This document shows, piece by piece, positions 3,057 through 30,391 of a stretch of 35,813 nt of DNA. Under the pieces are notes generated by a model, which saw only the letters and a program-made list of their open reading frames with translations, ran no database searches and was not told the origin of the DNA. Both the position numbers and the translations under genes were made by a program. Within the stretch, counting starts at the first letter, position 1. Each line of letters starts with the position of its first letter. Source of the stretch: a virus. The DNA lies in the IMG/VR virus record IMGVR_UViG_3300044984_000894; one strand, 5' to 3'.

Positions 3057-4118
3057 ATGAGTACAGCTAACTTAGATGCAGCAACACTTAAAGGTGTTGT
3101 TCGTGGCGGTTTAATCCGTGAAGATGTAATGAACCAAATCTGGGATATTTCTAAAATCCCATTACCATTTACTGATGCGATTGGCACTGAAACTTCAGGC
3201 AATCCATACAAAGAGTGGACAACTGATGCACTTGCTGCACCAAACTTAACTAACGCTGTTATTGACGGCTCAGATGCTTCAGGTAACAACACTGTTACTG
3301 GCTTAAGAGTTGGTAATCATCACCAAATTTCTACTAAAGTTGTTCGTACATCTTTCAGAGCAGATTCTTCTGATGTGATTGGTCGTACTAAAGAGTTGTC
3401 TTATCAAATGATGCGTAGACAACAAGAGTTGCGTCGTGACGTTGAAGCTATTGCTTTAACTAACCAAGCATCTTTTGCTGATACTGGCTCTGCTGCTGGT
3501 AACGCTGGTGGTTTACCATCTTGGTTGACTACCAACTTCTCAGCTGGTGCAACTGGCGCAATCGGTGGCTTCCAATCTTCAGGTGTAACTCTAAAGCGTA
3601 CTTATGGTACTGCTAGAGCGTTGACTGAAACTCTTGTGCGTGATGCAGTTCAATCTGTTTACTCACAAGGTGGCGATCCAACTATCATGATGTCAGTACC
3701 TGGTGTTATTCGTAGATTCAGCGAGTATTTATTTACTTCTTCTGCTCGTGTAGCAACATTGATGTCAGATCAAGGAAAATCAGCTTCTGCTGCAACTGCA
3801 ATGGGTGCTGTGAATGTATTTGTAACTGACTTTGGTACTTTGAAATTAGTTCCAAACCGTTTGCAAATTCCTTACACTGGCACAGCTGGTTCTACAACTG
3901 GTGTTTATGCTTCTTCTGGCGTATCTGCTGACGTATTTATCCTTGATCCTTCATACTTGGCTATGTCTTATTTAAAAGGCTACAGAACTGAAGAATTGGC
4001 TAAAACTGGTCTTGCAGAAAACCGTCAAATGTCTGTTGATTGGACATTGATATGCAACACTGAGAAGTCACACGCAATCATTGGTGATATTACCATTGCA
4101 TCTGCTGTAACTGCTTAA
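3057..4118 (+). CDS. Major capsid protein (presumably HK97 fold)
   Basis: 353 aa, with RBS aaaggg upstream. Follows the scaffold gene and is followed by a strong hairpin. N-terminal motif NPYKEWTTDAL and overall composition resemble podovirus coat proteins. Confidence 0.8.
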   Translation: MSTANLDAATLKGVVRGGLIREDVMNQIWDISKIPLPFTDAIGTETSGNPYKEWTTDALAAPNLTNAVIDGSDASGNNTVTGLRVGNHHQISTKVVRTSFRADSSDVIGRTKELSYQMMRRQQELRRDVEAIALTNQASFADTGSAAGNAGGLPSWLTTNFSAGATGAIGGFQSSGVTLKRTYGTARALTETLVRDAVQSVYSQGGDPTIMMSVPGVIRRFSEYLFTSSARVATLMSDQGKSASAATAMGAVNVFVTDFGTLKLVPNRLQIPYTGTAGSTTGVYASSGVSADVFILDPSYLAMSYLKGYRTEELAKTGLAENRQMSVDWTLICNTEKSHAIIGDITIASAVTA

Positions 4119-4125
4119 TATTGAT

Positions 4126-4156
4126 AGCCCACTGTAACAGGTGGGCTTTCTTTTAT
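4126..4156 (+). terminator. Rho-independent terminator/attenuator after the capsid gene
   Basis: AGCCCAC-tgtaacag-GTGGGCT followed by ttcttttat. Confidence 0.6.
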
Positions 4157-4169
4157 CTGAGGAATAAAC

Positions 4170-4334
4170 ATGGCTACAACAAAAGAAAAAGAAGTAAAAC
4201 CAAAAACAATTAAAATTAAAAACATTTGGACTGATCCAATTAGTTTTGAAAGTGGTGTTATTGCACCAAACGCTGAAGGTGAAGTATCTTTAGCAGAAGC
4301 AGAAGCATTATCAGAATTTGTACAAAAGGTGTAA
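4170..4334 (+). CDS. Hypothetical 54-aa protein (MATTKEKEVKPKTIKIKNIWTDPISFESG...)
   Basis: Not in the ORF track (<60 aa). RBS ctgaGGAataaac precedes the ATG. Fills the gap between the capsid terminator and the next gene. Confidence 0.5.
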   Translation: MATTKEKEVKPKTIKIKNIWTDPISFESGVIAPNAEGEVSLAEAEALSEFVQKV

Positions 4335-4337
4335 GCA

Positions 4338-4661
4338 ATGGATAGTGTAATTAAAAGTGACATGCACTATGATGCTCAAAGCAATACAGTTACTCATGTT
4401 ACAACACAGCCTACTGAAAAGATTATCCTTGAACGTAATGCTGAGTTAAGAAAGAATCAAGGTGCTTTACATGATTTAGGTAAACAAAGTGGAGAATCTT
4501 TTGGTCGTATGGTAGCATCTATACCATTCATTATGTTTGAGAAAGCATTAAGAGATGGATACGATCTTAACAGTCCAGACAGCCAAATTGCAGGTCAAGA
4601 GATGAACAGATTTCTAAAGTCAACAGAAGGGAAGATGTGCCTAGTTCAAGGTAAGCACTGA
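4338..4661 (+). CDS. Hypothetical head-module protein, 107 aa
   Basis: ORF in the operon; its stop overlaps the next start (ATGA-type junction at 4661). Confidence 0.6.
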   Translation: MDSVIKSDMHYDAQSNTVTHVTTQPTEKIILERNAELRKNQGALHDLGKQSGESFGRMVASIPFIMFEKALRDGYDLNSPDSQIAGQEMNRFLKSTEGKMCLVQGKH

Positions 4662-4933
4662 TGGCTAAGTTCCTTGATTTTGCAAGAAACGTATGGATAG
4701 GAAGTAAAAATCCAGATGAAGGAAGATTAAGCTTAAAAGGATTGGGAAAGCCTCAAATAGTTACACCAACATTAATTGGCATGACATTAGCTCAAGCTAC
4801 CAATGCTTTGGTATCTGCTAGTTTGGAACTAGGAACAGTTACATTAACAACAGGATTAGTAACAGCTCAAAGTGTAGCTGCATACACTAATGTATCACCT
4901 GGTACTATCGTTAATATTACATTAACTTCATGA
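4661..4933 (+). CDS. Small virion-module protein with a PASTA-like C-terminal domain
   Basis: VTPTLIGMTLAQATNALVSASLELGTVTLTTGLVTAQSVAAYTNVSPGTIVNITLTS follows the PASTA pattern (P-x-hhG-x-x-x-x-A-x-x-x-L-x-x-x-G-L ... P-x-x-G-T-x-V-x-h-x-h-S). Confidence 0.5.
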   Translation: MAKFLDFARNVWIGSKNPDEGRLSLKGLGKPQIVTPTLIGMTLAQATNALVSASLELGTVTLTTGLVTAQSVAAYTNVSPGTIVNITLTS

Positions 4934-5169
4934 TTGCTTATATGCCTGACATTAATTGTAGAGTTGCCAAAGTAGAACAGCAAATAGAAGCATTGCTTAA
5001 TGACATACATCATGACCGTGAGGAATCACGTAGACGATCTGATAGAATATTTTTAATATTAGATGAACTTCAAAAAACTACTCATAATAATAAAGGATTT
5101 TTTGGTGGCGTAGTATTTAGTGTTTCAGCTATTTTTGCTTTTATTGTATATTTAACGAGCAAGAATTAA
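4930..5169 (+). CDS. 79-aa protein with coiled-coil N-terminus and single C-terminal TM helix (possible holin or lysis regulator)
   Basis: FFGGVVFSVSAIFAFIVYLTS is hydrophobic. The stop overlaps the endolysin start (TAATG at 5167-5171). Confidence 0.55.
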   Translation: MIAYMPDINCRVAKVEQQIEALLNDIHHDREESRRRSDRIFLILDELQKTTHNNKGFFGGVVFSVSAIFAFIVYLTSKN

Positions 5170-5600
5170 TGAGTGCATTAGAAATATTAATAAAATTAAT
5201 AAAAGATTCAGAAGGTTGCAAATTAAAATCTTATAAATGCCCAGCAGGAATATGGACTATTGGTTATGGACAAACTAAAGGCGTTAAAGAAGGAATGACA
5301 TGGACACAGCAACAAGCTGATGAAGATATAATTAAAACCGCATTACAGGCTTTTAATGAAGCGATTAAGTCTTCACCAATACTATCAACTGCTAACATGG
5401 AGAAACAAGCTGCAATAGCGGATTTTGTTTATAATTTAGGCATAACGAATTACAATAAATCAACATTAAAACTAAGGGTTGATAAAGGTAACTGGGTTTC
5501 TGCATCAACAGAGATCAAGAAATGGAATAAGAGTAATGGAACTATTCTTAATGGTTTAGTTAAAAGAAGGCAATTAGAAGCTGACTTATTATTGATGTAA
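5169..5600 (+). CDS. Endolysin, GH24 (T4-lysozyme-like) muramidase
   Basis: IKDSEGCKLKSYKCPAGIWTIGYGQT gives the E-x8-(D/C)-x5-T catalytic pattern (E15, C24, T30). FVYNLG and LVKRRQLE are also family-typical. There is no N-terminal SAR/TM segment. Confidence 0.9.
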   Translation: MSALEILIKLIKDSEGCKLKSYKCPAGIWTIGYGQTKGVKEGMTWTQQQADEDIIKTALQAFNEAIKSSPILSTANMEKQAAIADFVYNLGITNYNKSTLKLRVDKGNWVSASTEIKKWNKSNGTILNGLVKRRQLEADLLLM

Positions 5601-5609
5601 GGAATTATA

Positions 5610-6026
5610 ATGGCTATATCGGTTTACACAAAATACACTGCTGGAGTTGAGTCACTGGTAGAAGGAACAAATGCAGGAACAGATGTTTGGAAGGTAGCAT
5701 TAGCAAATACTATCAACATTTCTGATACAACATTTGTAGCTGGAACAACAGATTTAGTTACTGCTGGAGGCTATACAGCTGGTGGTAATACTTGTGCTAC
5801 AACATCATCATCTCAGTCTGGTGGAATATTTAAACTTGTGCTTGCAAGTCCAGCTATTTGGACAGCAACAGGCGCAGGATTTACTTATCGCTATGCGATT
5901 CTCTATAATTCAACACTGAATATTCCAATAGGTTTTTGGGATTATGGCTCAAGCCAACTTATTTCAGCTTCTGAAACAGTGCAGACCGTACTTGATTCGG
6001 TCAATGGCGTGTTTCAAATAACTTAA
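5610..6026 (+). CDS. Hypothetical virion/tail-associated protein, 138 aa
   Basis: RBS aaggaattataATG, identical in form to that of the next gene. T/G/A/S-rich beta-type composition. Confidence 0.6.
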   Translation: MAISVYTKYTAGVESLVEGTNAGTDVWKVALANTINISDTTFVAGTTDLVTAGGYTAGGNTCATTSSSQSGGIFKLVLASPAIWTATGAGFTYRYAILYNSTLNIPIGFWDYGSSQLISASETVQTVLDSVNGVFQIT

Positions 6027-6035
6027 GGAATTATA

Positions 6036-7493
6036 ATGGCTCTTGCATTAAAAGATCGTGTTAAAGAAACAACTATTGTTGTAGGCACAGGAACAGCTAC
6101 TTTATTAGGCTCTAGCATTGGGTTTCAACCTTTTTCTGTTGTTGGCAATGGCAATACTACTTATTATTGTATTTCAGATCAGTTTGGCTCTAACTGGGAA
6201 GTTGGTATTGGCACTTATTCAACCTCTGGAAATACACTTGCTAGAACAACGGTATTGGCATCATCAAATGGTGGAGCATTAGTTGTATTTACTGCTGGGA
6301 TTAAAGATGTATTTGTCACTTATCCTGCTGAGAAAGGCGTTTGGCTTGATGCTTCTGGTAATGCTATAGGTTTAGGAACTCCTGCTGCATTTGTAGGCAC
6401 TAATATTACAGGTACTGCTTCTGGATTAACCGCTGGTAATGTTACTACTAACGCCAATCTTACAGGCGCAGTTACTTCTTCAGGCAATGCAACATCTTTA
6501 GGGTCTTTTACTTCTGCTCAACTAGCACTTGCAATAAGCGATGAAACAGGGACTGGTAAAGCCGTATTTGCAACAAATCCAACATTGACATCGCCAACTT
6601 ATGCAGGAACTCTTACAGGCTCTACTGACATACTAAACATAGGCTCAGGTCAAATCTATAAAGATGCTTCAGGCAACGTGGGGATTGGGACTGCTTCACC
6701 AACTCAAAAGTTACAAGTAGCAGGTAATATAGCTCTGCAAGGTAGTACATCAGGAACTGTAACATTACAAGCACCAGCGGTAGCAGGGAGTACGGTCTTA
6801 ACTTTGCCAGCGGTAACAGGAAACGTCTTAACAACTACAAGTGGTGTAGCACACACAGTCCAAGTATTCACATCAGGCTCAGGCACATACACTCTACCGA
6901 CTAACTGTAAAGCTATTAAGGTCACGATGGTTGGTGGTGGAGGTGGTGGCGGTGGTGGTGGTACTGGTAGTTGGGGTATCGGAGGGGCTGGAGGTAATAC
7001 TACTTTTGGAGCTAATACTGCAAATGGCGGAAACGCACCGGCTGCACCTTATGGTACTGGTGGTGGTGGTGGATCGTTTACTTTAGGTGTTGGCTCAGGG
7101 TATGGGATAGTTGGTGGGGCGGCTGGCGATGGTAGCATAACTACAACTGGAGGTACTGCTAGTAATGGCATAGGTTCAGCAGGAGGAGGCACACCATTCG
7201 GTAGTGGTGGGGCTGGTGGGGCTTATGTTACCAGTGGAAGAGCGGCCTCCGGCAATACAGGCGCTGGGGGTGGTGGTGGAGCTGCTGGTAATGCTACGGC
7301 TACTACTCTTTATGGTGGCAATGGTGGTGGAGGGGCTGGGTATTTAATGTCCTTAATAGCTTCTCCTTCTGCTACCTATTCGTATGCTATAGGGGCTGGA
7401 GGTACAGCCGGTGCAGCCGGTGCAGGGGGAAACGCGCAGGCTGGCGGTGCTGGTGGCTCAGGTGTAATTATAGTGGAGGAATATTATGTTTAA
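6036..7493 (+). CDS. Glycine-rich tail fibre / receptor-binding protein
   Basis: 485 aa. N-terminal fibre-like T/S/G/A repeats. The C-terminal 190 aa are dominated by GG-containing repeats starting at KVTMVGGGGGGGGGGTGSWGIGGAGGNTTFG and ending GGAGGSGVIIVEEY. Confidence 0.75.
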   Translation: MALALKDRVKETTIVVGTGTATLLGSSIGFQPFSVVGNGNTTYYCISDQFGSNWEVGIGTYSTSGNTLARTTVLASSNGGALVVFTAGIKDVFVTYPAEKGVWLDASGNAIGLGTPAAFVGTNITGTASGLTAGNVTTNANLTGAVTSSGNATSLGSFTSAQLALAISDETGTGKAVFATNPTLTSPTYAGTLTGSTDILNIGSGQIYKDASGNVGIGTASPTQKLQVAGNIALQGSTSGTVTLQAPAVAGSTVLTLPAVTGNVLTTTSGVAHTVQVFTSGSGTYTLPTNCKAIKVTMVGGGGGGGGGGTGSWGIGGAGGNTTFGANTANGGNAPAAPYGTGGGGGSFTLGVGSGYGIVGGAAGDGSITTTGGTASNGIGSAGGGTPFGSGGAGGAYVTSGRAASGNTGAGGGGGAAGNATATTLYGGNGGGGAGYLMSLIASPSATYSYAIGAGGTAGAAGAGGNAQAGGAGGSGVIIVEEYYV

Positions 7494-22956: not shown

Positions 22957-23379
22957 TTATTTATCAAATTGCAAATATTTTTTATCTTTCCAGAAAATAA
23001 ATGCTTCATATGCTCCAACATAACCAAGAGCTACACAAGCGAAAGCCCCTTGTTTCTTGGCTTCCAAGAGATATTCTTGCTGTCCATCTTGCCATTTTGA
23101 CCGTGTATGATCTTGACGTTTTAATTCACAGACGAACGCAACGCTTGCTGGAATTAAAATATCAGATGCTCCTTTTGTCATGCCTTCACTTTTTTGTTTA
23201 GCAACCTGGTGATAAGTACGCAGTCCTTCATTTCTTATGTGCGTTGCAATCTTTCCATAACTGTCTGGGTATTCTCTTCTAAGTTTTGCAAAGAATGTTA
23301 CTGCTTCAGCAGCTTCAGAAGGACATTCACCTCTAAACTCAATATCACCAAAAACTTTTATATCATTGTGGAACTTCAT
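22957..23379 (-). CDS. VRR-NUC domain nuclease
   Basis: GASDILIPASVAFVCELKRQ gives the PD-(D/E)xK signature, followed by QQEYLLEAKKQGAFACVA. The start is ATG 23379 (AGGA 6 nt upstream) or 23385. It overlaps the helicase stop. Confidence 0.75.
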   Translation of the reverse strand: MKFHNDIKVFGDIEFRGECPSEAAEAVTFFAKLRREYPDSYGKIATHIRNEGLRTYHQVAKQKSEGMTKGASDILIPASVAFVCELKRQDHTRSKWQDGQQEYLLEAKKQGAFACVALGYVGAYEAFIFWKDKKYLQFDK

Positions 23380-25147
23380 CGGCATTCCTGTTGTAGTCGT
23401 ATATCCTAAAAAAATCACCACTTTTTCTATAAGTGATGGTGGTTGGTGTTGTAAAGCCTCCATCAGTAAACGCCATAAAAGCATCGTAGTGCTTCTGCAT
23501 CTTCATGGTAAACCATACTGGAAACGATCTATACTCGGTTACAAAATCAACCCGTAGGCATTCATTTCCTGCCTTGCTTAGTGTGGGAGTTGCTCGCATT
23601 GCAACAACCTTATCAGTTTGTATCTGCGTGGGGTCTTTTTTCTTCATCTGGAAGTCAGAAATTAGCTTGCTGTTTGGGTCAATCAGTTCGTGCTTGCACT
23701 CGCAACAATACCTTGCTGCAATATCGTTTTCAGCTTCACAATGCACACAAGGTTTAAACGTCCATCTATAGCTGCATCTAACCAGTTTCTTTATGGTCTT
23801 GTTAAATACTTCCCCATAACATCTTCTGCCATGATGGGCTGGCATATCTCCATATTCTGTTTCTAGTCGTATTCCTTCAAGATCAATAAAATATCCATTA
23901 ATGTCAATCTCATGTTTTGCTTCATTAATTACTGGTGCAAACTGATTTATTGCTCTGCACTCTGGACATTGTGCTTCTATTGCTTCACCAGCTCCACAAT
24001 TACTTGATGCTTCAATTTCTGGATTAAATAAATCACCATCAGTACAATGACGACTAATATTTTCTGCATAATCAAGAATCAGACAGTCATCTTTGTTGTT
24101 ATCAATTCTAAGTCCTCTACCAATTATTTGTTGGAGTAAACTAACTGACTCGGTAGCTCTTAAAATAGCCACCAAATCAACGTGTGGGGCATCAAATCCT
24201 GTAGTCAACACGCTAACATTAACTAAATATTTAAGCCTTCTAGCTTTAAATAATCGCAGTATTTCAGCACGTTCTTGTTTGGGTGTTTCGCCAGTAACAA
24301 TTGCTGATAACGATGGCGGTAACGACCCCATTACCTCGCCAGCATGTTGCACTGTAGCTGCAAAAATCATTACACCTTGTCTATCTACTGCTTGCGATAC
24401 AATATCGCCCACAATTGAGCTGGTGAGCCTTCCTTGTCCATGAAATGCCCTATCAATGTCAGCAGCATCAAAGTTACCCATGCGATTGGTTTGCAACTCC
24501 AATGTTTCATAATGACCTGTATTGATTCCCCCAATAGTAGGAGCTGTTAAATAACCTTGTTTTATTAAATCTCTCGCATAAACAGTAAACACTCTTGCGC
24601 TAAAGTAAGGATCTTTTGCTTTATCGTCACCATAAGCATTGCCATGCTCGTCCATCCTATATATATAGCCATCACCAAGACGGTATGGCGTTGCTGACAA
24701 ACCTATGACCCTAAGATTAGGATTACAGGCAACCAAAGATTCAATGATGCTTTTAACGGTTGGTGTTATCCTATGTGCTTCATCCAGTACAACCGCACAA
24801 AATTTAGCTCCAAAACGATGAATCTTATTCTTGACGCTAACAGGTGTGCCAAAAACTACTGGATGTTTTAAACATGTTTCACCAACACTTGCACTAAACA
24901 AACTGCATTGATTACCAGTATCTCTATATTTCTCTGCATTTTGTTCTAACAGCTCTTTTGATGGGACAAGACACAATATATGTTTACCACCACTAACTTG
25001 GTGTAGTGTATTTGCTATTGCTGCAACAATTAAAGATTTGCCACTCCCTGTTGGCAGTTCTAATACGCATGGTGATGTACATTTCTTTATCCAGTCTATA
25101 GCAGCATCATGCGCTTGTGATTGGTATGGGCGCAGTTTCATAATCAT
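23363..25147 (-). CDS. SF2 DEAD/DEAH-box helicase with C-terminal zinc-ribbon region
   Basis: Motif I LELPTGSGKS, motif II VVLDEAH, motif III LSATP. C-terminal CPECRAIN and CVHCEAEN...CCECKHEL. Confidence 0.85.
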   Translation of the reverse strand: MIMKLRPYQSQAHDAAIDWIKKCTSPCVLELPTGSGKSLIVAAIANTLHQVSGGKHILCLVPSKELLEQNAEKYRDTGNQCSLFSASVGETCLKHPVVFGTPVSVKNKIHRFGAKFCAVVLDEAHRITPTVKSIIESLVACNPNLRVIGLSATPYRLGDGYIYRMDEHGNAYGDDKAKDPYFSARVFTVYARDLIKQGYLTAPTIGGINTGHYETLELQTNRMGNFDAADIDRAFHGQGRLTSSIVGDIVSQAVDRQGVMIFAATVQHAGEVMGSLPPSLSAIVTGETPKQERAEILRLFKARRLKYLVNVSVLTTGFDAPHVDLVAILRATESVSLLQQIIGRGLRIDNNKDDCLILDYAENISRHCTDGDLFNPEIEASSNCGAGEAIEAQCPECRAINQFAPVINEAKHEIDINGYFIDLEGIRLETEYGDMPAHHGRRCYGEVFNKTIKKLVRCSYRWTFKPCVHCEAENDIAARYCCECKHELIDPNSKLISDFQMKKKDPTQIQTDKVVAMRATPTLSKAGNECLRVDFVTEYRSFPVWFTMKMQKHYDAFMAFTDGGFTTPTTITYRKSGDFFRIYDYNRNADEVPQ

Positions 25148-25374
25148 TAATTACTCAGTTCAATACGTTTAAAAAAAGAATACCATTTTGATGGCTTTGC
25201 TGTATTGCCAAGCGTTAATAAACCATGATCATTCTTTAAAATAGCTATTGCTATAGCTTTGTATGATGGAGCTAAATTATTTTTCATTAACTCAGCAGGA
25301 ACTTCATCAGGGATATCTATTGGATAACCCTGTTCTTTCCATTTATTAATATAATCTTGTATTTTCCCAATCAT
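25147..25374 (-). CDS. Hypothetical 75-aa protein sharing an AIxILKNDH motif with the C-terminus of the PP-loop enzyme
   Basis: KAIAIAILKNDHGLLTLG compared with RFAITILKNDHTCKYMGF. TAATG junction with the helicase start. Confidence 0.55.
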   Translation of the reverse strand: MIGKIQDYINKWKEQGYPIDIPDEVPAELMKNNLAPSYKAIAIAILKNDHGLLTLGNTAKPSKWYSFFKRIELSN

Positions 25375-25729
25375 TTAATTTTATCCTTGCTGCATTGTTT
25401 GCTTCTATTTTTTGATAATCATCTAATAAAAAGAAACCACTTTTAAATGTGCTTGGTATTTTATTTGCCAAACACATTGATGACTGCCCAAGCCAAGCTA
25501 TTCTATTTATACTTGGATTAGATAAAAAATGTTCTGAAGAATATTTCCATGTTTTTATTACTTCATCCATTGAATAATTAAACAACTCAATATCTGATAA
25601 AAAAATTGCATATTCTTCTTTGCACTGTTCTTTTGTTTTTCCATCAGGTGGAATAGTGCTATAAAATCCTGCTTTATAGCACTCCCATAGCCACCAAGGA
25701 TGATAAATCCTAAGCCCATTCTTCTTCAT
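25346..25729 (-). CDS. Hypothetical 127-aa protein (MKKNGLRIYHPWWLWECYKAGFYS...)
   Basis: ATG at 25729 overlaps the ParB-like stop by 20 nt. No family recognised. Confidence 0.5.
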   Translation of the reverse strand: MKKNGLRIYHPWWLWECYKAGFYSTIPPDGKTKEQCKEEYAIFLSDIELFNYSMDEVIKTWKYSSEHFLSNPSINRIAWLGQSSMCLANKIPSTFKSGFFLLDDYQKIEANNAARIKLNDWENTRLY

Positions 25730-26237
25730 CTGCTTCCCAACTATCAGAAAAACTACGATTTTGAAATAAAGCAGCAACACCAGTTATTTGTTTTAATCTC
25801 AATAACTCATCAACACTCATTCCAATATGTTTGCATATCCAAGCATCTCCTTTTCCCATTTCAACAAGCTCAGAAACTATAGTACTCATTAATTCAATAT
25901 TATGAGAACCTCTAGCTCTGTTATGTCTGATAGTAGATGCCATTCTGTCGCCAAGTTCTTTTTTGATTACAACAATTGGCAGCATGTTATTTTCACGCTC
26001 TCTTATGCGCTCACTATTTTTCATTGTTAAATAGCGGTGAAACCCATCTACTACAATGTAAATGTCTTTTGTATCATCGTAATAAGTAACAATTGGCTGC
26101 GTATATCCATCTTCCCATATTGATGTTTCTAATAAAGCCATCTCAGGTGGAGCAACTGCATTAGGGTTGTAATCATTTGCAGTTACTTGGCTAAATGGAA
26201 CGCAAAGTACGTTATAAACTGGAGATTTAAATGTCAT
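25710..26237 (-). CDS. ParB/sulfiredoxin-fold protein (IbrB-like)
   Basis: VPFSQVTANDYNPNAV, IVVDGFHRY, TIRHNRARGSH. The ATG at 26237 is preceded by AAGGA. The track start 26264 is a TTG. Confidence 0.75.
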   Translation of the reverse strand: MTFKSPVYNVLCVPFSQVTANDYNPNAVAPPEMALLETSIWEDGYTQPIVTYYDDTKDIYIVVDGFHRYLTMKNSERIRERENNMLPIVVIKKELGDRMASTIRHNRARGSHNIELMSTIVSELVEMGKGDAWICKHIGMSVDELLRLKQITGVAALFQNRSFSDSWEADEEEWA

Positions 26238-26610
26238 ATGAATTATCCTTATTGTGGACCTCAAGTCCTGTTAATGGTGGGTTAAATACGCATAGCAGCT
26301 CTACTGTAGAAAAAGCTATAAATGAATGCGGATCATTGTTGTCAAGAACGTACATTGTGCCGGGCAATATTCTATGCTTTTCTCCTGTATTTTTATTTGT
26401 AATACATCCATGACCTTTTATGCAATAACAAGCTTCAAGATGATTTTTATAATGCCAATGTTGCTCTCCATTTGGAGGTATTATTGTATTTGTTACAGAA
26501 AATCCCATATTGTCTTTTTCAAGCAAAAACCTTCTGCTTAAAAACCCTCCTTTTGGGCATTTAACTTCTCTTTCTGTTCCTGCTAACTCATGTAATTTAA
26601 TTATTTTCAT
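26227..26610 (-). CDS. Ectoine-synthase (EctC)-type cupin
   Basis: Gap-free collinearity over 125 aa with EctC as I recall it. HWHYKNHLEACYCIKGHG aligns with HIHYKHHFEAVYCIEGEG, PGTMYVLDNNDPH with PGDIYILDQHDEH, and CVFNPPLTGLEVHNKDNSY with CVFTPGLTGNEVHREDGSY. The Glu/Tyr/His metal ligands are conserved. Confidence 0.8.
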   Translation of the reverse strand: MKIIKLHELAGTEREVKCPKGGFLSRRFLLEKDNMGFSVTNTIIPPNGEQHWHYKNHLEACYCIKGHGCITNKNTGEKHRILPGTMYVLDNNDPHSFIAFSTVELLCVFNPPLTGLEVHNKDNSYDI

Positions 26611-27908
26611 AATTTTTTATATTTTTCCATAATATTACGTTGTCTCAATGATTGTTCTTTTGTTGGAGCAAATCCCATGTATTTACAGGTATGGTCATTT
26701 TTTAAAATAGTAATTGCAAATCGTTTCCATGAAGCAATTTCACTATTATTATTTCTTATATCATCAGTATGGTCTGGGTATTTTTTAATTATCACTCTAA
26801 TTTTGTCTTTCCTTCCATGAGGAGTTAATCCGTTTTCTTTTATCTTTATACGGTTACTTTCTCTTAGTTGTTTTAAAGTACTGTCTGATACGGTTTGCCC
26901 AACTCTACCCCAGTATTTTATAGATTGAACAAACCGCATTTTAAAATTTATAGAAACTTCCTCCGGTAAAGTTGCCAATAAAAATTTAACAAATGATTTC
27001 CATGTATGTCCTTCTGGAAGCTTAAAAGTATTGTAATTAAGTTGTTTTCCATAAGTTGCTATAAAGTTAGCACCTTGCACTCTGGCACATAATTTAGCCC
27101 ATGTATGAGGATCAATAACTCGATACAAACCTAAACTAGATTTAGACTCAGACATAAATGGAGACGCAACCCTCATTCTATGAACTGGAATACCTGCTTT
27201 ATAAAAAATATCGTAAAGCTTGTTGTAATCCCAATCATATATATAATTAGCCGTCCAAACATCTTCTGTTCTCCAATCATAAATGGGGTAACAATTATAA
27301 GAATGTTCAGTATTCTTTTTTGTCCACATTTGACCGCCTAATGTTTCCTTGCGTTGATTCATAATTGCTCTAAACCTGTTTAAACTTTCAACAGTTCTAA
27401 TTCCAATTAAATTTGCGCAAGTTTTGCCTTGTGAATACCATTCTGAAAATCCATCCCAGAATTTATCGTATGGCATATCTTCTTCAAAAAATGGAAAATT
27501 ATGATTTTCAAAATTAACAATGTAATCTTGTTTTGGCATAGGGCGTATCCATCTTTCTTTATCTCTATTACCCCAGCATTGCCATTCAACTGCATACGAA
27601 CTTATTGTGCAAGGAAGCGTTATTGGCAAACAACACCAATAAATTTCAAGCAAATCTCTATTTGAATCAAGTATTTTGTGCATAAACTCTACAGACAATT
27701 CATAATTTGCTTCATTGTCTAAAATTTGAATGCCTATTTTTTTTGTTATTCCTTTTTCCCTCATATATTTCAAAACAAAATTAAGCATTACTCCAGAATC
27801 TTTGCCGCCTGAAAATGAAAGATATATTCTTTCAAAATTATTAAATATAAAATCTAATCTTTCTACGCCTGCATCCCAAACATTCTTATTTCTGTTATAA
27901 GTTCTCAT
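26607..27908 (-). CDS. PAPS-reductase-family PP-loop ATP pyrophosphatase with long C-terminal extension (IbrA/DUF3440-like)
   Basis: SFSGGKDSGV is the PP-loop. The ATG at 27908 forms ATGA with the exonuclease stop, and GGAGG lies 5 nt upstream. Confidence 0.85.
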   Translation of the reverse strand: MRTYNRNKNVWDAGVERLDFIFNNFERIYLSFSGGKDSGVMLNFVLKYMREKGITKKIGIQILDNEANYELSVEFMHKILDSNRDLLEIYWCCLPITLPCTISSYAVEWQCWGNRDKERWIRPMPKQDYIVNFENHNFPFFEEDMPYDKFWDGFSEWYSQGKTCANLIGIRTVESLNRFRAIMNQRKETLGGQMWTKKNTEHSYNCYPIYDWRTEDVWTANYIYDWDYNKLYDIFYKAGIPVHRMRVASPFMSESKSSLGLYRVIDPHTWAKLCARVQGANFIATYGKQLNYNTFKLPEGHTWKSFVKFLLATLPEEVSINFKMRFVQSIKYWGRVGQTVSDSTLKQLRESNRIKIKENGLTPHGRKDKIRVIIKKYPDHTDDIRNNNSEIASWKRFAITILKNDHTCKYMGFAPTKEQSLRQRNIMEKYKKL

Positions 27909-28768
27909 GTCAACCTCCAATAACTACTAGGAGGTGATTGATATTTAGTAAGGTCTGCATCAGGCAATAATTCTTTTATGGCTTTAGCGTAGGATATAGC
28001 ACCATCACGGTGTACTTGTGTTAGTTTGTGTCCAGCAATCTCACTATCCTTTCCACCAGCCAATGTAACTATCTCAGCTAATATATCTTTGCGTGTTGCT
28101 TCTAGCTTCTTAATTTCTTCTGTTGCTGCAAGATACAGTTCCAACATTGCTTCACATTGAAGTTGTTGGCGTTTATCTTCCAAATACTTTATACAGACTG
28201 GTGCTTCACGTTCCACAAGATACTTATTATAAAATGTTCTAAGTTCCGGTAAGTATTTATCAATAGCTAAAGGATTAAACCAAACTGTTTCTAGCATCTC
28301 TCCATGTGCAGACCATTGGTAGAAATGACACCATTCCCTACCAGTAACTAACAACTGTATTTGTATTTGCATCCAGTAATGCGTTTGGTAGTCTATGCTT
28401 TTAAACTCTGGTGGGTTTTTGTCACGCAAACCATATGGGCATTTAATTTCAATTAAACCGTCAGTATCGATCAAACCATCTGGTGATGCTCCAAGCCAAT
28501 CTTCATAAGTATGAAAACCAGTTTCTACTACTTTTTTATCAAACTTCAATTCGTAATCAGCTAAAGCATTGGGTTCGTTATACGTTCCATAGCTAGTCGC
28601 TGGATTACCAGTAAACTCACTTGGATAGCCATGATAATCACGAACCATGTTACGCATAACATCTTCACGTTTCATAAATGGCGACAATCCTAGAATTGCA
28701 CCAACATTACTACCAGTTATACGACCTTTGCGTTTTTCAAACCATTCTTCTGTACGTTGTTGTTCCAT
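27905..28768 (-). CDS. YqaJ-type (lambda-Exo-like) recombination exonuclease
   Basis: EEWFEKRKGRITGSNVGAILG and the later IEIKCP (PD-(D/E)xK) motif. Confidence 0.85.
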   Translation of the reverse strand: MEQQRTEEWFEKRKGRITGSNVGAILGLSPFMKREDVMRNMVRDYHGYPSEFTGNPATSYGTYNEPNALADYELKFDKKVVETGFHTYEDWLGASPDGLIDTDGLIEIKCPYGLRDKNPPEFKSIDYQTHYWMQIQIQLLVTGREWCHFYQWSAHGEMLETVWFNPLAIDKYLPELRTFYNKYLVEREAPVCIKYLEDKRQQLQCEAMLELYLAATEEIKKLEATRKDILAEIVTLAGGKDSEIAGHKLTQVHRDGAISYAKAIKELLPDADLTKYQSPPSSYWRLT

Positions 28769-29341: not shown

Positions 29342-30100
29342 TTATGCTCCGATGCTTGGGATTAAATTTAAAAGTGGATTAGTTCCGTTTACAACCAATA
29401 AGTCCTCGCTAATTCCATAACGGTTTTTAGATACGTTGGCAGCGCTTGCATAAGTAACTAATATGCGAGTTCCATCTGATATAGCTTTTTTACGATCTCC
29501 ATCACCAAAAGTATGTGTTTCCAACTTAAGATAACCACATAAATCAACATTATCTGTATAATGCGAAACGCTCTTTTTCTGCATACGGATGTTATAACGT
29601 GTATACGGGTCTTGGTCAGGAAGTTCTATTGTTTCTGTTTCACTATGTGCTATGAATACAATGTTCATGCCCTTAGTTTCATTAAGTATGCCAGCAGCTT
29701 TGCGAACCCTGCCATGCAAACTTGACAACGCTTGGAAGCCAGCACCATAACCTCCAAGGGCTTGCGCAATGGTTCGTGGTTTTTTAGGATCAGTATCAAC
29801 AATGTGATTTGTGAACAAATTATCAAGCTGAGTGACACTGTCAATAACCAATGTTTTATAATCATGATCTTCCTTGATTAATGCAGTTAGTTGTTCCCAC
29901 AACATATCAACATTAGATAGCAATGGAAAAGCATCAGGTCTTGTTGCTGTTGGTATGGCTTGTAATCCATCTTCAGCTCTGATAAATATAGGTTTTGGAA
30001 ATGTGGCAGCTAAACTTGTTTTTCCAAGTCCTGCATCGCCAGTTATAGTGCAGATAATCGAACGATCATCTGGTTTTGCAATAGAGCTTAATATGCTCAT
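29342..30100 (-). CDS. AAA_24 / Sak4-like RecA-fold recombination ATPase
   Basis: Walker A ITGDAGLGKTSLA followed by PIFIRAEDG. Walker B LVIDSV. RBS AAGGAG. Confidence 0.8.
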   Translation of the reverse strand: MSILSSIAKPDDRSIICTITGDAGLGKTSLAATFPKPIFIRAEDGLQAIPTATRPDAFPLLSNVDMLWEQLTALIKEDHDYKTLVIDSVTQLDNLFTNHIVDTDPKKPRTIAQALGGYGAGFQALSSLHGRVRKAAGILNETKGMNIVFIAHSETETIELPDQDPYTRYNIRMQKKSVSHYTDNVDLCGYLKLETHTFGDGDRKKAISDGTRILVTYASAANVSKNRYGISEDLLVVNGTNPLLNLIPSIGA

Positions 30101-30142
30101 GGTATTTCTCCTTACGGTTAAAAATCTTTTTCTCTAATTCCG

Positions 30143-30171
30143 TTGCACATTTTACCGATATAAATTAGAAT
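30143..30171 (+). promoter_or_regulatory. Sigma70-like rightward promoter (TTGCAC-17-TAGAAT)
   Basis: -35 at 30143-30148 and -10 at 30166-30171, about 45 nt upstream of the HTH gene ATG. Confidence 0.45.
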
Positions 30172-30176
30172 TGCAA
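30149..30176 (-). promoter_or_regulatory. Sigma70-like leftward promoter (TTGCAA-16-TAAAAT), interdigitated with the rightward one
   Basis: -35 at 30176-30171 and -10 at 30154-30149 on the minus strand, about 45 nt upstream of the Sak4-like ATG. Confidence 0.4.
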
Positions 30177-30214
30177 CACCTAAACAAATATTTTTTTAAA
30201 CAAGAGGAAAAACA

Positions 30215-30391
30215 ATGCTAACACCTGAAGAAATCAAAGCTAAATTAATACATCCTTCTTTTAACCTATCTTATTTATCTAGGGAAGTAGGAATCGGATA
30301 TATGACTCTGTGGAAATTAGCTCACGGGAAATTAAAAGTAATTCCTTATGATTTAGTCAAAAAATTAAGTGACTATTTCAATGTTGCCTGA
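30215..30391 (+). CDS. XRE/Cro-like HTH protein, 58 aa
   Basis: Not in the track. RBS AGAGGA. LSYLSREVGIGYMTLWKLAHGK is a helix-turn-helix. Confidence 0.6.
   Translation: MLTPEEIKAKLIHPSFNLSYLSREVGIGYMTLWKLAHGKLKVIPYDLVKKLSDYFNVA

Follow-up and report, generated by a model that had tools for sequence, protein, structure and literature searches.

A conserved five-gene phage module that links IbrA- and IbrB-like proteins to an EctC-type cupin: a candidate nucleic acid modification complex

The IMG/VR virus record IMGVR_UViG_3300044984_000894, a stretch of 35,813 nucleotides referred to below as the window, carries on its minus strand a tightly packed block of five genes at positions 25147-27908. 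Read along that strand, the block encodes IbrA, a PP-loop protein of 433 amino acids (aa) combining the families PAPS_reduct and DUF3440 (26607-27908); a 127-aa cupin of the ectoine synthase (EctC) family, Ectoine_synth (26227-26610); IbrB, a ParB-like protein of 175 aa assigned to phrog_2159 (25710-26237); D127, an all-alpha protein of 127 aa from no known family (25346-25729); and E75, a 75-aa copy of the C-terminal DUF3440 motif of IbrA (25147-25374). A YqaJ-type exonuclease gene flanks the block upstream of IbrA (27905-28768) and a DEAD/ResIII helicase gene flanks it downstream of E75 (23363-25147), so that seven minus-strand genes stand head-to-tail. The YqaJ/IbrA and IbrA/cupin junctions are ATGA overlaps (27905-27908 and 26607-26610), the following three junctions are overlaps of 11 nucleotides (nt; 26227-26237), 20 nt (25710-25729) and 29 nt (25346-25374), and E75 meets the helicase gene at TAATG (25145-25149). 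All of these coordinates hold against the open reading frame (ORF) list and a reading of the junctions, and the original prediction for this DNA, which had placed five overlapping minus-strand genes within a recombination/replication operon, was exact in both respects. Homologues match the ATG starts used here rather than the longer TTG and GTG starts of the mechanical ORF list.

IbrA/IbrB genes are very common and yet have no assigned biochemical function; at E values of 1e-10 or lower, IbrA candidates number at least 7,999, and matches occur in 207 records of cultured phages. The five-gene form adds to the pair a chemically informative enzyme, together with gene fusions that mark a probable complex, which makes the question of function experimentally approachable. 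Here, we present evidence that the five genes constitute one conserved unit, a derived, cupin-bearing version of the IbrA/IbrB pair, and that this unit is real and probably catalytic. We tentatively favor, at somewhat less than an even chance, the reading that the module is a ParB-guided, ATP-dependent, multi-subunit complex that would modify nucleic acid, probably DNA.

IbrA matches the Pfam families DUF3440 (PF11922) at 5e-60 over the full domain and PAPS_reduct (PF01507) at 1e-9, and it matches phrog_2302 at 9e-107, a family that PHROGs places in its category of auxiliary metabolic genes. The N-terminal half has the fold of phosphoadenosine phosphosulfate (PAPS) reductase and the C-terminal half is a DUF3440 domain ending in SWKRFAITILKNDHTCKYMGF, in agreement with the predicted enzyme bearing the PP-loop SFSGGKDSGV and a long C-terminal extension. 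The PP-loop SFSGGKDSG and six cysteines are invariant among 41 IbrA homologues. The AlphaFold2 (AF2) model is of medium confidence (predicted local distance difference test score, pLDDT, 73.6) and of low confidence at the loop with the cysteine motif described below and at residues 247-282. In a Foldseek search, the N-terminal ~240 residues of this model matched PAPS reductase, CysD and flavin mononucleotide (FMN) adenylyltransferase folds at E ~1e-5 and were more distant from TtuA, NcsA, TilS and LarE, the transfer RNA (tRNA) enzymes scoring E 3e-3 or worse. Members of the PP-loop superfamily bind adenine nucleotides, and either transfer adenosine monophosphate to an oxygen nucleophile, as do CysD, FMN adenylyltransferase, TilS and the thiolases, or handle sulfonucleotides.

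Curated models rule out IbrA as a true DndC or CysH. Against the DndC equivalog model (TIGR03183) IbrA scores 20.7 bits, with a cut-off of 290, in a local match confined to residues 167-219; the PADLOC DndC match (27.5 bits) and the BrxP match are likewise local. The scores against CysH (TIGR00434) and CysD are 16.1 bits (cut-off 165) and 23.7 bits (cut-off 195), and a direct reading of the IbrA sequence found no ECG[LI]H catalytic cysteine motif. The earlier description of the protein as DndC-like is thus accurate at the level of the superfamily and fails at that of the family.

The cupin scores above the curated thresholds for ectoine synthase, both in Pfam (Ectoine_synth, PF06339; 1.8e-44, 151.5 bits, cut-off 27) and in NCBIfam (NF009806; 154.2 bits, cut-off 128), and it matches the Paenibacillus lautus EctC structure, 5ONM in the Protein Data Bank (PDB), at 1.9e-27. 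The collinearity with ectoine synthase originally seen is borne out, and by these scores the protein is a genuine EctC homologue. It shares fold and length with EctC (PDB 5ONM and 5BXX) and with orphan EctC proteins, and is 43-50% identical to ect-cluster, structurally solved and orphan representatives. In EctC, Fe(II) serves as a Lewis acid on an amide carbonyl, yielding a cyclic amidine in a reversible reaction. We read the phage clade, an alignment of 75 members, against the residue roles given for the P. lautus structures in PMC6344544. Of the 75 sequences, 75, 75 and 70 keep the iron ligands E59, Y87 and H95 (P. lautus Glu-57/Tyr-84/His-92), and S25, R27, T42, Y54, H57 and F109 are essentially invariant; a further cysteine, Cys61, is invariant. 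In contrast to EctC, the position of Trp-21 is occupied by Phe in 68 members, and that of Asn-38 by Thr (52 members) or His (16). All 437 EctC proteins from ect clusters retain Trp-21, a residue needed for activity, and Asn-38, which contacts the carboxylate and acts as a proton relay, is among the completely conserved residues of the catalytic core (PMC6344544). The cupin is therefore best described as having an intact metal center and a remodeled substrate pocket, and it fails two defining features of an ectoine synthase.

The genomic company of the cupin also differs from that of EctC, in that it is never found with ectA or ectB and always with IbrA and IbrB. When the window and 175 fetched loci (1.54 Mb) were searched by tblastn with Vibrio EctA and EctB, neither the window nor any locus linked to IbrA gave a hit. 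The lone hit, locus L003 (MT835761), was excluded as a further cupin phage, being an ordinary ectB-ectC pair outside the cupin clade, with neither IbrA nor IbrB. This record (MT835761.1, a human fecal scaffold labeled 'Bacteriophage sp.' and 'unverified') encodes at 2-1618 an EctB 55% identical to the Vibrio protein, and it represents bacterial DNA binned with a virome, or else a genuine auxiliary gene for ectoine. In a neighbor-joining tree, 74 IbrA-linked cupins were monophyletic with respect to five canonical or orphan EctC sequences. The nearest plasmid-borne relatives, at 45-51% identity, are orphan EctC proteins without ectAB.

These observations bear on the annotation under which such genes usually travel, namely that they are auxiliary metabolic genes, an ectoine synthase relieving osmotic stress of the host and a PAPS reductase for sulfate assimilation. 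The cupin does pass both ectoine synthase thresholds, PHROGs files IbrA accordingly, and viromics papers have taken viral 'ectoine synthase' in this sense (PMC12647753, PMC13079714). However, EctA and EctB are missing from the window and from the 175 loci apart from the non-clade L003, Trp-21 and Asn-38 are replaced, 60 of 126 loci have the cupin and a ParB-like protein as one fusion, and IbrA lies far below the CysH (16 versus 165 bits) and CysD (24 versus 195 bits) cut-offs and lacks ECGLH. We regard this explanation as scarcely credible. For this clade, a recurring annotation error can accordingly be corrected: viral 'ectoine synthase' and 'PAPS reductase' genes counted as osmotic or sulfur auxiliary genes are here parts of a ParB-linked machine.

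The module may also account for some of the 'solitary EctC' proteins flagged by ectoine researchers. A review of ectoine biosynthesis describes a basal 'group 1' of orphan EctC proteins found only in Mycobacterium abscessus and questions whether these are genuine synthases (PMC5924519); they may be copies of the module carried by prophages. Separately, M. abscessus prophages have been reported to express early a protein with cysteine dioxygenase (cupin) motifs near a PAPS reductase-like gene (PMC8092301), and the orphan EctC and this prophage cupin may both belong to related cupin and PP-loop modules.

IbrB belongs to phrog_2159 (5e-75). Its match to Pfam ParB_N falls below threshold (16.6 bits, cut-off 26.3), and a profile search of the PDB aligned its N-terminal domain, a nucleotide-binding one of the ParB/sulfiredoxin fold, with Noc (6e-5) and ParB (1e-3), which supports kinship with ParB at the level of the fold and agrees with the ParB-fold protein of 175 aa originally proposed. 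The DGFHR motif of IbrB aligns over the GERR of ParB box II, with the last arginine alone in register. Within the family, the box II residues H67 and R68 are invariant, as is the motif STIRHNRARG, and residues 121-147 gave a helix-turn-helix (HTH)-like match in the PDB profile search. IbrB is 60-67% identical to the IbrB proteins of Streptococcus and Lactobacillus phages that carry the two-gene pair, and it lies one gene away from IbrA in the same operon. A role as a canonical ParB partition protein was rejected on the ParB_N score, the lack of GERRxR and the lack of an adjacent ParA-like gene. ParB-fold proteins act as nucleotide-gated DNA-binding switches and, more rarely, as kinases.

The original prediction had left two proteins of the block without a family, and this holds for D127 and not for E75. 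D127 found no match in Pfam, PHROGs, NCBIfam or PADLOC, and only noise in a profile search of the PDB. Its AF2 model is confident (pLDDT 95) and shows an all-alpha domain, for which the best Foldseek match in the PDB has an E of 1.7 and a template modeling (TM) score below 0.3. With invariant residues at W15-E16, W61, N75, A78-W79 and G81, and with 788 representative clusters among 1.84 billion proteins, D127 defines a new family. E75 is a stand-alone copy of the C-terminal motif of IbrA, IPDE...PSYKAIAIAILKND...LG. It falls on positions 138-172 of DUF3440 (PF11922), which all 19 of 19 family members match, and hhalign pairs it with IbrA residues 378-418 at a probability of 90% and an E of 1.4e-6; it is thus a separate copy of the C-terminal end of DUF3440. 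Against the PADLOC models, none of the five proteins rises above noise. A 316-aa relative of D127, P0296, is fused behind a small-terminase (Terminase_2) domain, which could be an artefact of gene calling or a hint that D127 contacts proteins of DNA packaging or DNA recognition.

The distribution of the cupin provides the strongest evidence that the five genes belong together. A cupin-seeded scan found relatives on 239 IMG/VR contigs and on six contigs among 185,579 representative genomes; all six are contigs of metagenome-assembled genomes, and all carry the same module. This cupin clade is essentially confined to viral contigs. A hidden Markov model survey of all fetched loci yielded 127 distinct cupin loci, and in the 62 of these with at least 3.5 kb on both sides the full locus could be assessed; all five genes were present in 61. 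The arrangement is therefore far beyond chance, and D127 and E75 are as strictly linked to the module as the cupin. The order IbrA-cupin-IbrB-D127-E75 is kept in 98 of 114 complete loci, the remainder being mostly circular permutations; IbrB directly follows the cupin in 116 of 126 loci, and E75 always follows D127. The cupin and IbrB form a single fused ORF in the 60 loci mentioned above, that of Mycobacterium phage Gaia being an example, D127 and E75 are fused in three, and one IbrB-D127 fusion (P0284) was found. The frequency of the first fusion indicates that the cupin and IbrB are physically coupled, and the rarer ones tie in D127 and E75. The result named beforehand as refuting the original proposal, a cupin that never accompanies the PP-loop/ParB pair in other genomes, is thereby decisively excluded, and the proposed three-enzyme block, with two unnamed proteins beside it, stands as a co-inherited unit in which the cupin is integral, about half of the loci having it fused to IbrB; what changes is that the module has five components. 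In one 78.7-kb contig (L172, 9070-10423), a 373-aa GIY-YIG/NUMOD3 gene occupies the usual place of D127 between IbrB (229 aa) and E75; it may encode a homing endonuclease that has entered D127 or become fused to it, and that module lies between RecA/dCMP deaminase and Toprim primase/DNA polymerase III alpha genes.

A survey seeded with IbrA gave a cleanly bimodal picture. All IbrA proteins at an identity of at least 63% sit with the cupin, IbrB, D127 and E75, and all those at an identity of at most 46% lack the cupin. Most cupin-less IbrA proteins have IbrB as their only partner, in the two-gene pair of Streptococcus, Lactobacillus and Listeria phages, and a four-gene form, IbrA, IbrB, D127 and E75 without the cupin, occurs in loci L095, L164, L167 and L168, Microcystis phage Mwe-JY13 being among its carriers. 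There are thus three architectures, of two, four and five genes, and that of the window is the most elaborate. The two-gene pair, known from ibrAB of Escherichia coli and ybdNM of strain K-12, has the same core, a PAPS_reduct and DUF3440 protein beside a short ParB-fold/HTH protein, and the C-terminal motif ILKNDHxCK is common to both kinds of IbrA. Relative to that pair, the module adds three obligatory genes, for the cupin, D127 and E75, and its IbrA forms a separate clade. A private motif of this clade, YWCCxPxxLPCTxSxYxxxWQCWG, contains the pattern CC-x6-C-x10-C (C92, C93, C100 and C111), which is present in 136 of 139 cupin-linked and none of 18 cupin-less IbrA proteins; the clade has a further cysteine, C274. 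Confinement of the motif to the cupin-linked proteins implies that the cupin and the cysteine cluster arrived together. One cupin-less pair, that of the Streptococcus thermophilus phage D4276 (L094, MF161328; 1484-5265), lies three genes downstream of the anti-CRISPR AcrIIA5 and is directly preceded by an overlapping hypothetical gene of 411 aa; it may reside in an anti-defense region with an extra partner of its own.

The module is conserved to an unusual degree across hosts. Between the window and other module loci, IbrA is 65-76% and IbrB 73-84% identical. The phages concerned span at least three phyla, and the loci include Mycobacterium phage Gaia (Actinomycetota), Pseudoalteromonas phage XCL1123 (Pseudomonadota) and contigs from Bacteroidota bins. 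Among near-identical relatives the module is better conserved than its flanks, with IbrA at 97-100% identity, YqaJ at 76-94% and the helicase at 86-97%. Across loci the neighbors are YqaJ, Sak4, helicase, primase, RecA, DnaB and DNA polymerase genes. Cultured carriers are the Mycobacterium phages Gaia and Nebkiss and the Pseudoalteromonas phage XCL1123, which provide genetically tractable systems on M. smegmatis and on Pseudoalteromonas. A blastn comparison of Gaia 4028-7164 (55% G+C) with the window block (30-35% G+C) gave ~67% nucleotide identity over 39% of the query, which is unusually strong conservation at the DNA level for phages of different phyla.

Such extreme conservation across hosts argues for a universal substrate, and one substrate of this kind would be tRNA. 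IbrA could act, like TilS, TtcA or TtuA, on a universal tRNA position and the cupin could finish the adduct, allowing escape from anticodon nucleases or a retuning of translation. This would account for the cross-phylum conservation, Foldseek does place the N-terminal half of IbrA near TtuA, NcsA and TilS as well, and the four-cysteine motif recalls the Fe-S-dependent tRNA thiolases. The best folds, however, remain PAPS reductase, CysD and FMN adenylyltransferase, at E values well ahead of those of the tRNA enzymes; Pfam and NCBIfam scans found no RNA-binding domain such as THUMP or PUA; and the ParB fold and HTH region point to DNA. We consider a tRNA substrate improbable.

The properties of IbrB open two further possibilities. 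In the first, the module is a regulatory switch that leaves no covalent mark on DNA: IbrB would be a nucleotide-gated DNA clamp or anti-silencer like VirB and KorB, the cupin a sensor of a ligand or metal, and IbrA an ATP-consuming co-activator. Sensors are commonly built with a cupin N-terminal to a domain that binds DNA, and IbrB combines a ParB fold with an HTH-like region. The annotation behind the family name in some records is 'co-activator of prophage gene expression', the ParB-fold protein VirB acts as a transcriptional switch (bioRxiv 10.1101/2023.06.01.543266), and PMC10853773 describes DndB as a repressor that depends on ATP. A pure sensor, however, would have no use for a full EctC catalytic set, and yet the Fe triad, S25, R27, T42, Y54 and H57 are kept as invariant positions; the invariant PP-loop of IbrA points to chemistry rather than scaffolding; and near-identical proteins occur across three phyla, in phages whose promoters and silencers are unrelated. 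A purely regulatory role is in our view unlikely.

In the second, which we rate as equally unlikely, the module is a small-molecule or nucleotide pathway for anti-defense or host takeover, in which the ParB/sulfiredoxin-type domain is a kinase or NTPase acting on a metabolite, IbrA adenylates that metabolite and the cupin cyclizes or opens it, so that a signaling or toxic nucleotide derivative is made or destroyed. IbrB indeed shows weak profile matches (E 0.03-0.08) to the small-molecule kinases SbnI and SerK, the free serine kinase. EctC chemistry is known only on free amino acid derivatives (PMC6344544), PAPS reductase genes occur in Aca-regulated operons (PMC13551039), and the D4276 pair lies close to AcrIIA5. 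On the other hand, the C-terminal region of IbrB is HTH-like, the surroundings in most loci are replication genes and not the usual accessory or anti-defense islands, the module proteins stay within noise in PADLOC, and no transporter or other metabolic gene is linked.

Several known systems resemble the module in part. Like DndB and DndC (and SspD and BrxP), it pairs a PP-loop enzyme of the PAPS reductase superfamily with a protein of the ParB superfamily bearing a DGxHR-type motif, and a further likeness lies in conserved cysteines, with a Cys-Cys dyad in the cupin-linked IbrA clade. In contrast to Dnd, no equivalents of DndA, DndD or DndE are linked to the module; dndD/dndE, sspB/sspC and cysteine desulfurase were absent among the five module proteins and the few neighbors scanned; and Dnd, Ssp and BREX have nothing that corresponds to DUF3440, the cupin, D127 or E75. 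In the phage thymine dioxygenases that depend on ParB (5mYOX and ParB), a ParB-fold protein is the obligatory partner of an Fe(II) enzyme and is encoded among genes of DNA metabolism, as in the module, but the enzyme is a 2-oxoglutarate dioxygenase rather than an EctC cupin, the ParB protein has no DNA-binding domain, and there is no PP-loop enzyme (PMC13229309). Taken together, these comparisons suggest that the module is not a Dnd, Ssp or BREX phosphorothioation system, CysH/CysD sulfur assimilation, canonical ParB partition or a functional ectoine synthase. We found no paper that describes the five-gene module, its chemistry or an EctC-ParB fusion, nor any mechanistic study of IbrA/IbrB, and the main text of a recent survey of ParB-fold fusions contains no EctC, PAPS reductase or IbrB. 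The claim that the system is undescribed accordingly holds for the literature and needs one qualification: the GenBank product name 'ectoine synthase/ParB multidomain protein' in Mycobacterium phage Gaia and Pseudoalteromonas phage XCL1123 is the only prior trace of the module.

The reading that we favor, a ParB-guided complex modifying nucleic acid, draws on the retention of catalytic motifs in all three enzyme-like proteins, namely the PP-loop of IbrA, the Fe triad and most substrate contacts of the cupin, and the box II arginine of IbrB. ParB-fold partners of DNA-modifying enzymes have precedents in the ParB-activated phage thymine dioxygenases (PMC13229309) and in DndB with DndC (PMC10853773). 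A phage protein with a PAPS reductase domain, fused to Dam and thus differing from IbrA in architecture, defeats Dnd restriction genetically (bioRxiv 10.1101/2021.05.05.442762). The chemistry, the formation of a complex, the nucleic acid substrate, the order of steps and the biological pay-off, as we infer them, would be as follows. The module would be expressed early, along with the genes for replication and recombination. IbrB, as a ParB-fold nucleotide switch with an HTH region, would bind nucleic acid, most likely the replicating DNA of the phage itself, and bring along the cupin, with which it often shares one polypeptide. Through its PP-loop, IbrA would adenylate an oxygen, either of the target or of a donor small molecule; the group so activated would then undergo amide/amidine condensation or hydrolysis at the EctC-type Fe(II) center. 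Neither D127 nor E75 would be catalytic; both would serve as adaptors, E75 mimicking the tail of IbrA and probably competing for, or duplicating, a docking site. The likely pay-off would be a covalent mark that protects or regulates phage DNA. The proposed route of adenylation followed by cyclization on DNA or on a nucleotide is plausible and provides the leading idea here.

A more specific version, rather unlikely as it stands, is that the module installs a new covalent DNA modification, in which IbrA adenylates a base carbonyl or an oxygen of the backbone or a donor, and the IbrB-tethered cupin closes or opens, on the group so attached, a cyclic amidine similar to the tetrahydropyrimidine ring of ectoine. 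If true, this would reveal a new class of DNA hypermodification and the chemistry of the whole IbrA/IbrB (DUF3440) family; the chemistry of the module, whatever it proves to be, would extend to that large family once solved.

Several points weigh against a nucleic acid modification complex. No IbrA/IbrB protein is known to produce a modified base, to bind DNA or to act as an enzyme, and the only experimental phenotype known to us is a regulatory one, ibrAB being reportedly needed for eib expression in E. coli in the 2002 work of Sandt and colleagues. The module is without the glycosylase-, transferase- or nickase-like partner typical of DNA hypermodification and phosphorothioation systems. The DUF3440 half of IbrA found no sequence or fold match in the PDB, with a model of medium confidence, and the weak kinase matches of IbrB fit a small-molecule substrate. 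The nearest cellular relatives of the cupin, the orphan EctC proteins, act as far as known on small molecules (PMC5924519).

The surroundings of the block in the window are a phage replication and recombination region, with a Sak4-type AAA_24 protein, a DUF669 single-stranded DNA-binding protein, the YqaJ exonuclease, the helicase and a divergent Toprim/AAA_25 primase-helicase. At 30-35% G+C, compared with 36.7% across the window, the block is rich in AT, as are the neighboring genes. A megablast of positions 1-24000 against 50,697 phage records gave no match, and the source phage is uncultured and without a close cultured relative. The minus-strand early operon (~19-30 kb) shows negative GC skew, with positive skew to either side. 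At ~30100-30215 there is a divergent promoter region; the Sak4-like gene borders it on one side and a small Cro/C1-type HTH gene (30215-30391) on the other, with the Toprim/AAA_25 primase-helicase coming after the HTH gene. At the other end, an ORF at 22957-23484 overlaps the 3' end of the helicase gene; at full length it has no Pfam match, a related Caudoviricetes record labels the gene at the equivalent position a VRR-NUC-type nuclease, and the true start of the ORF is probably internal.

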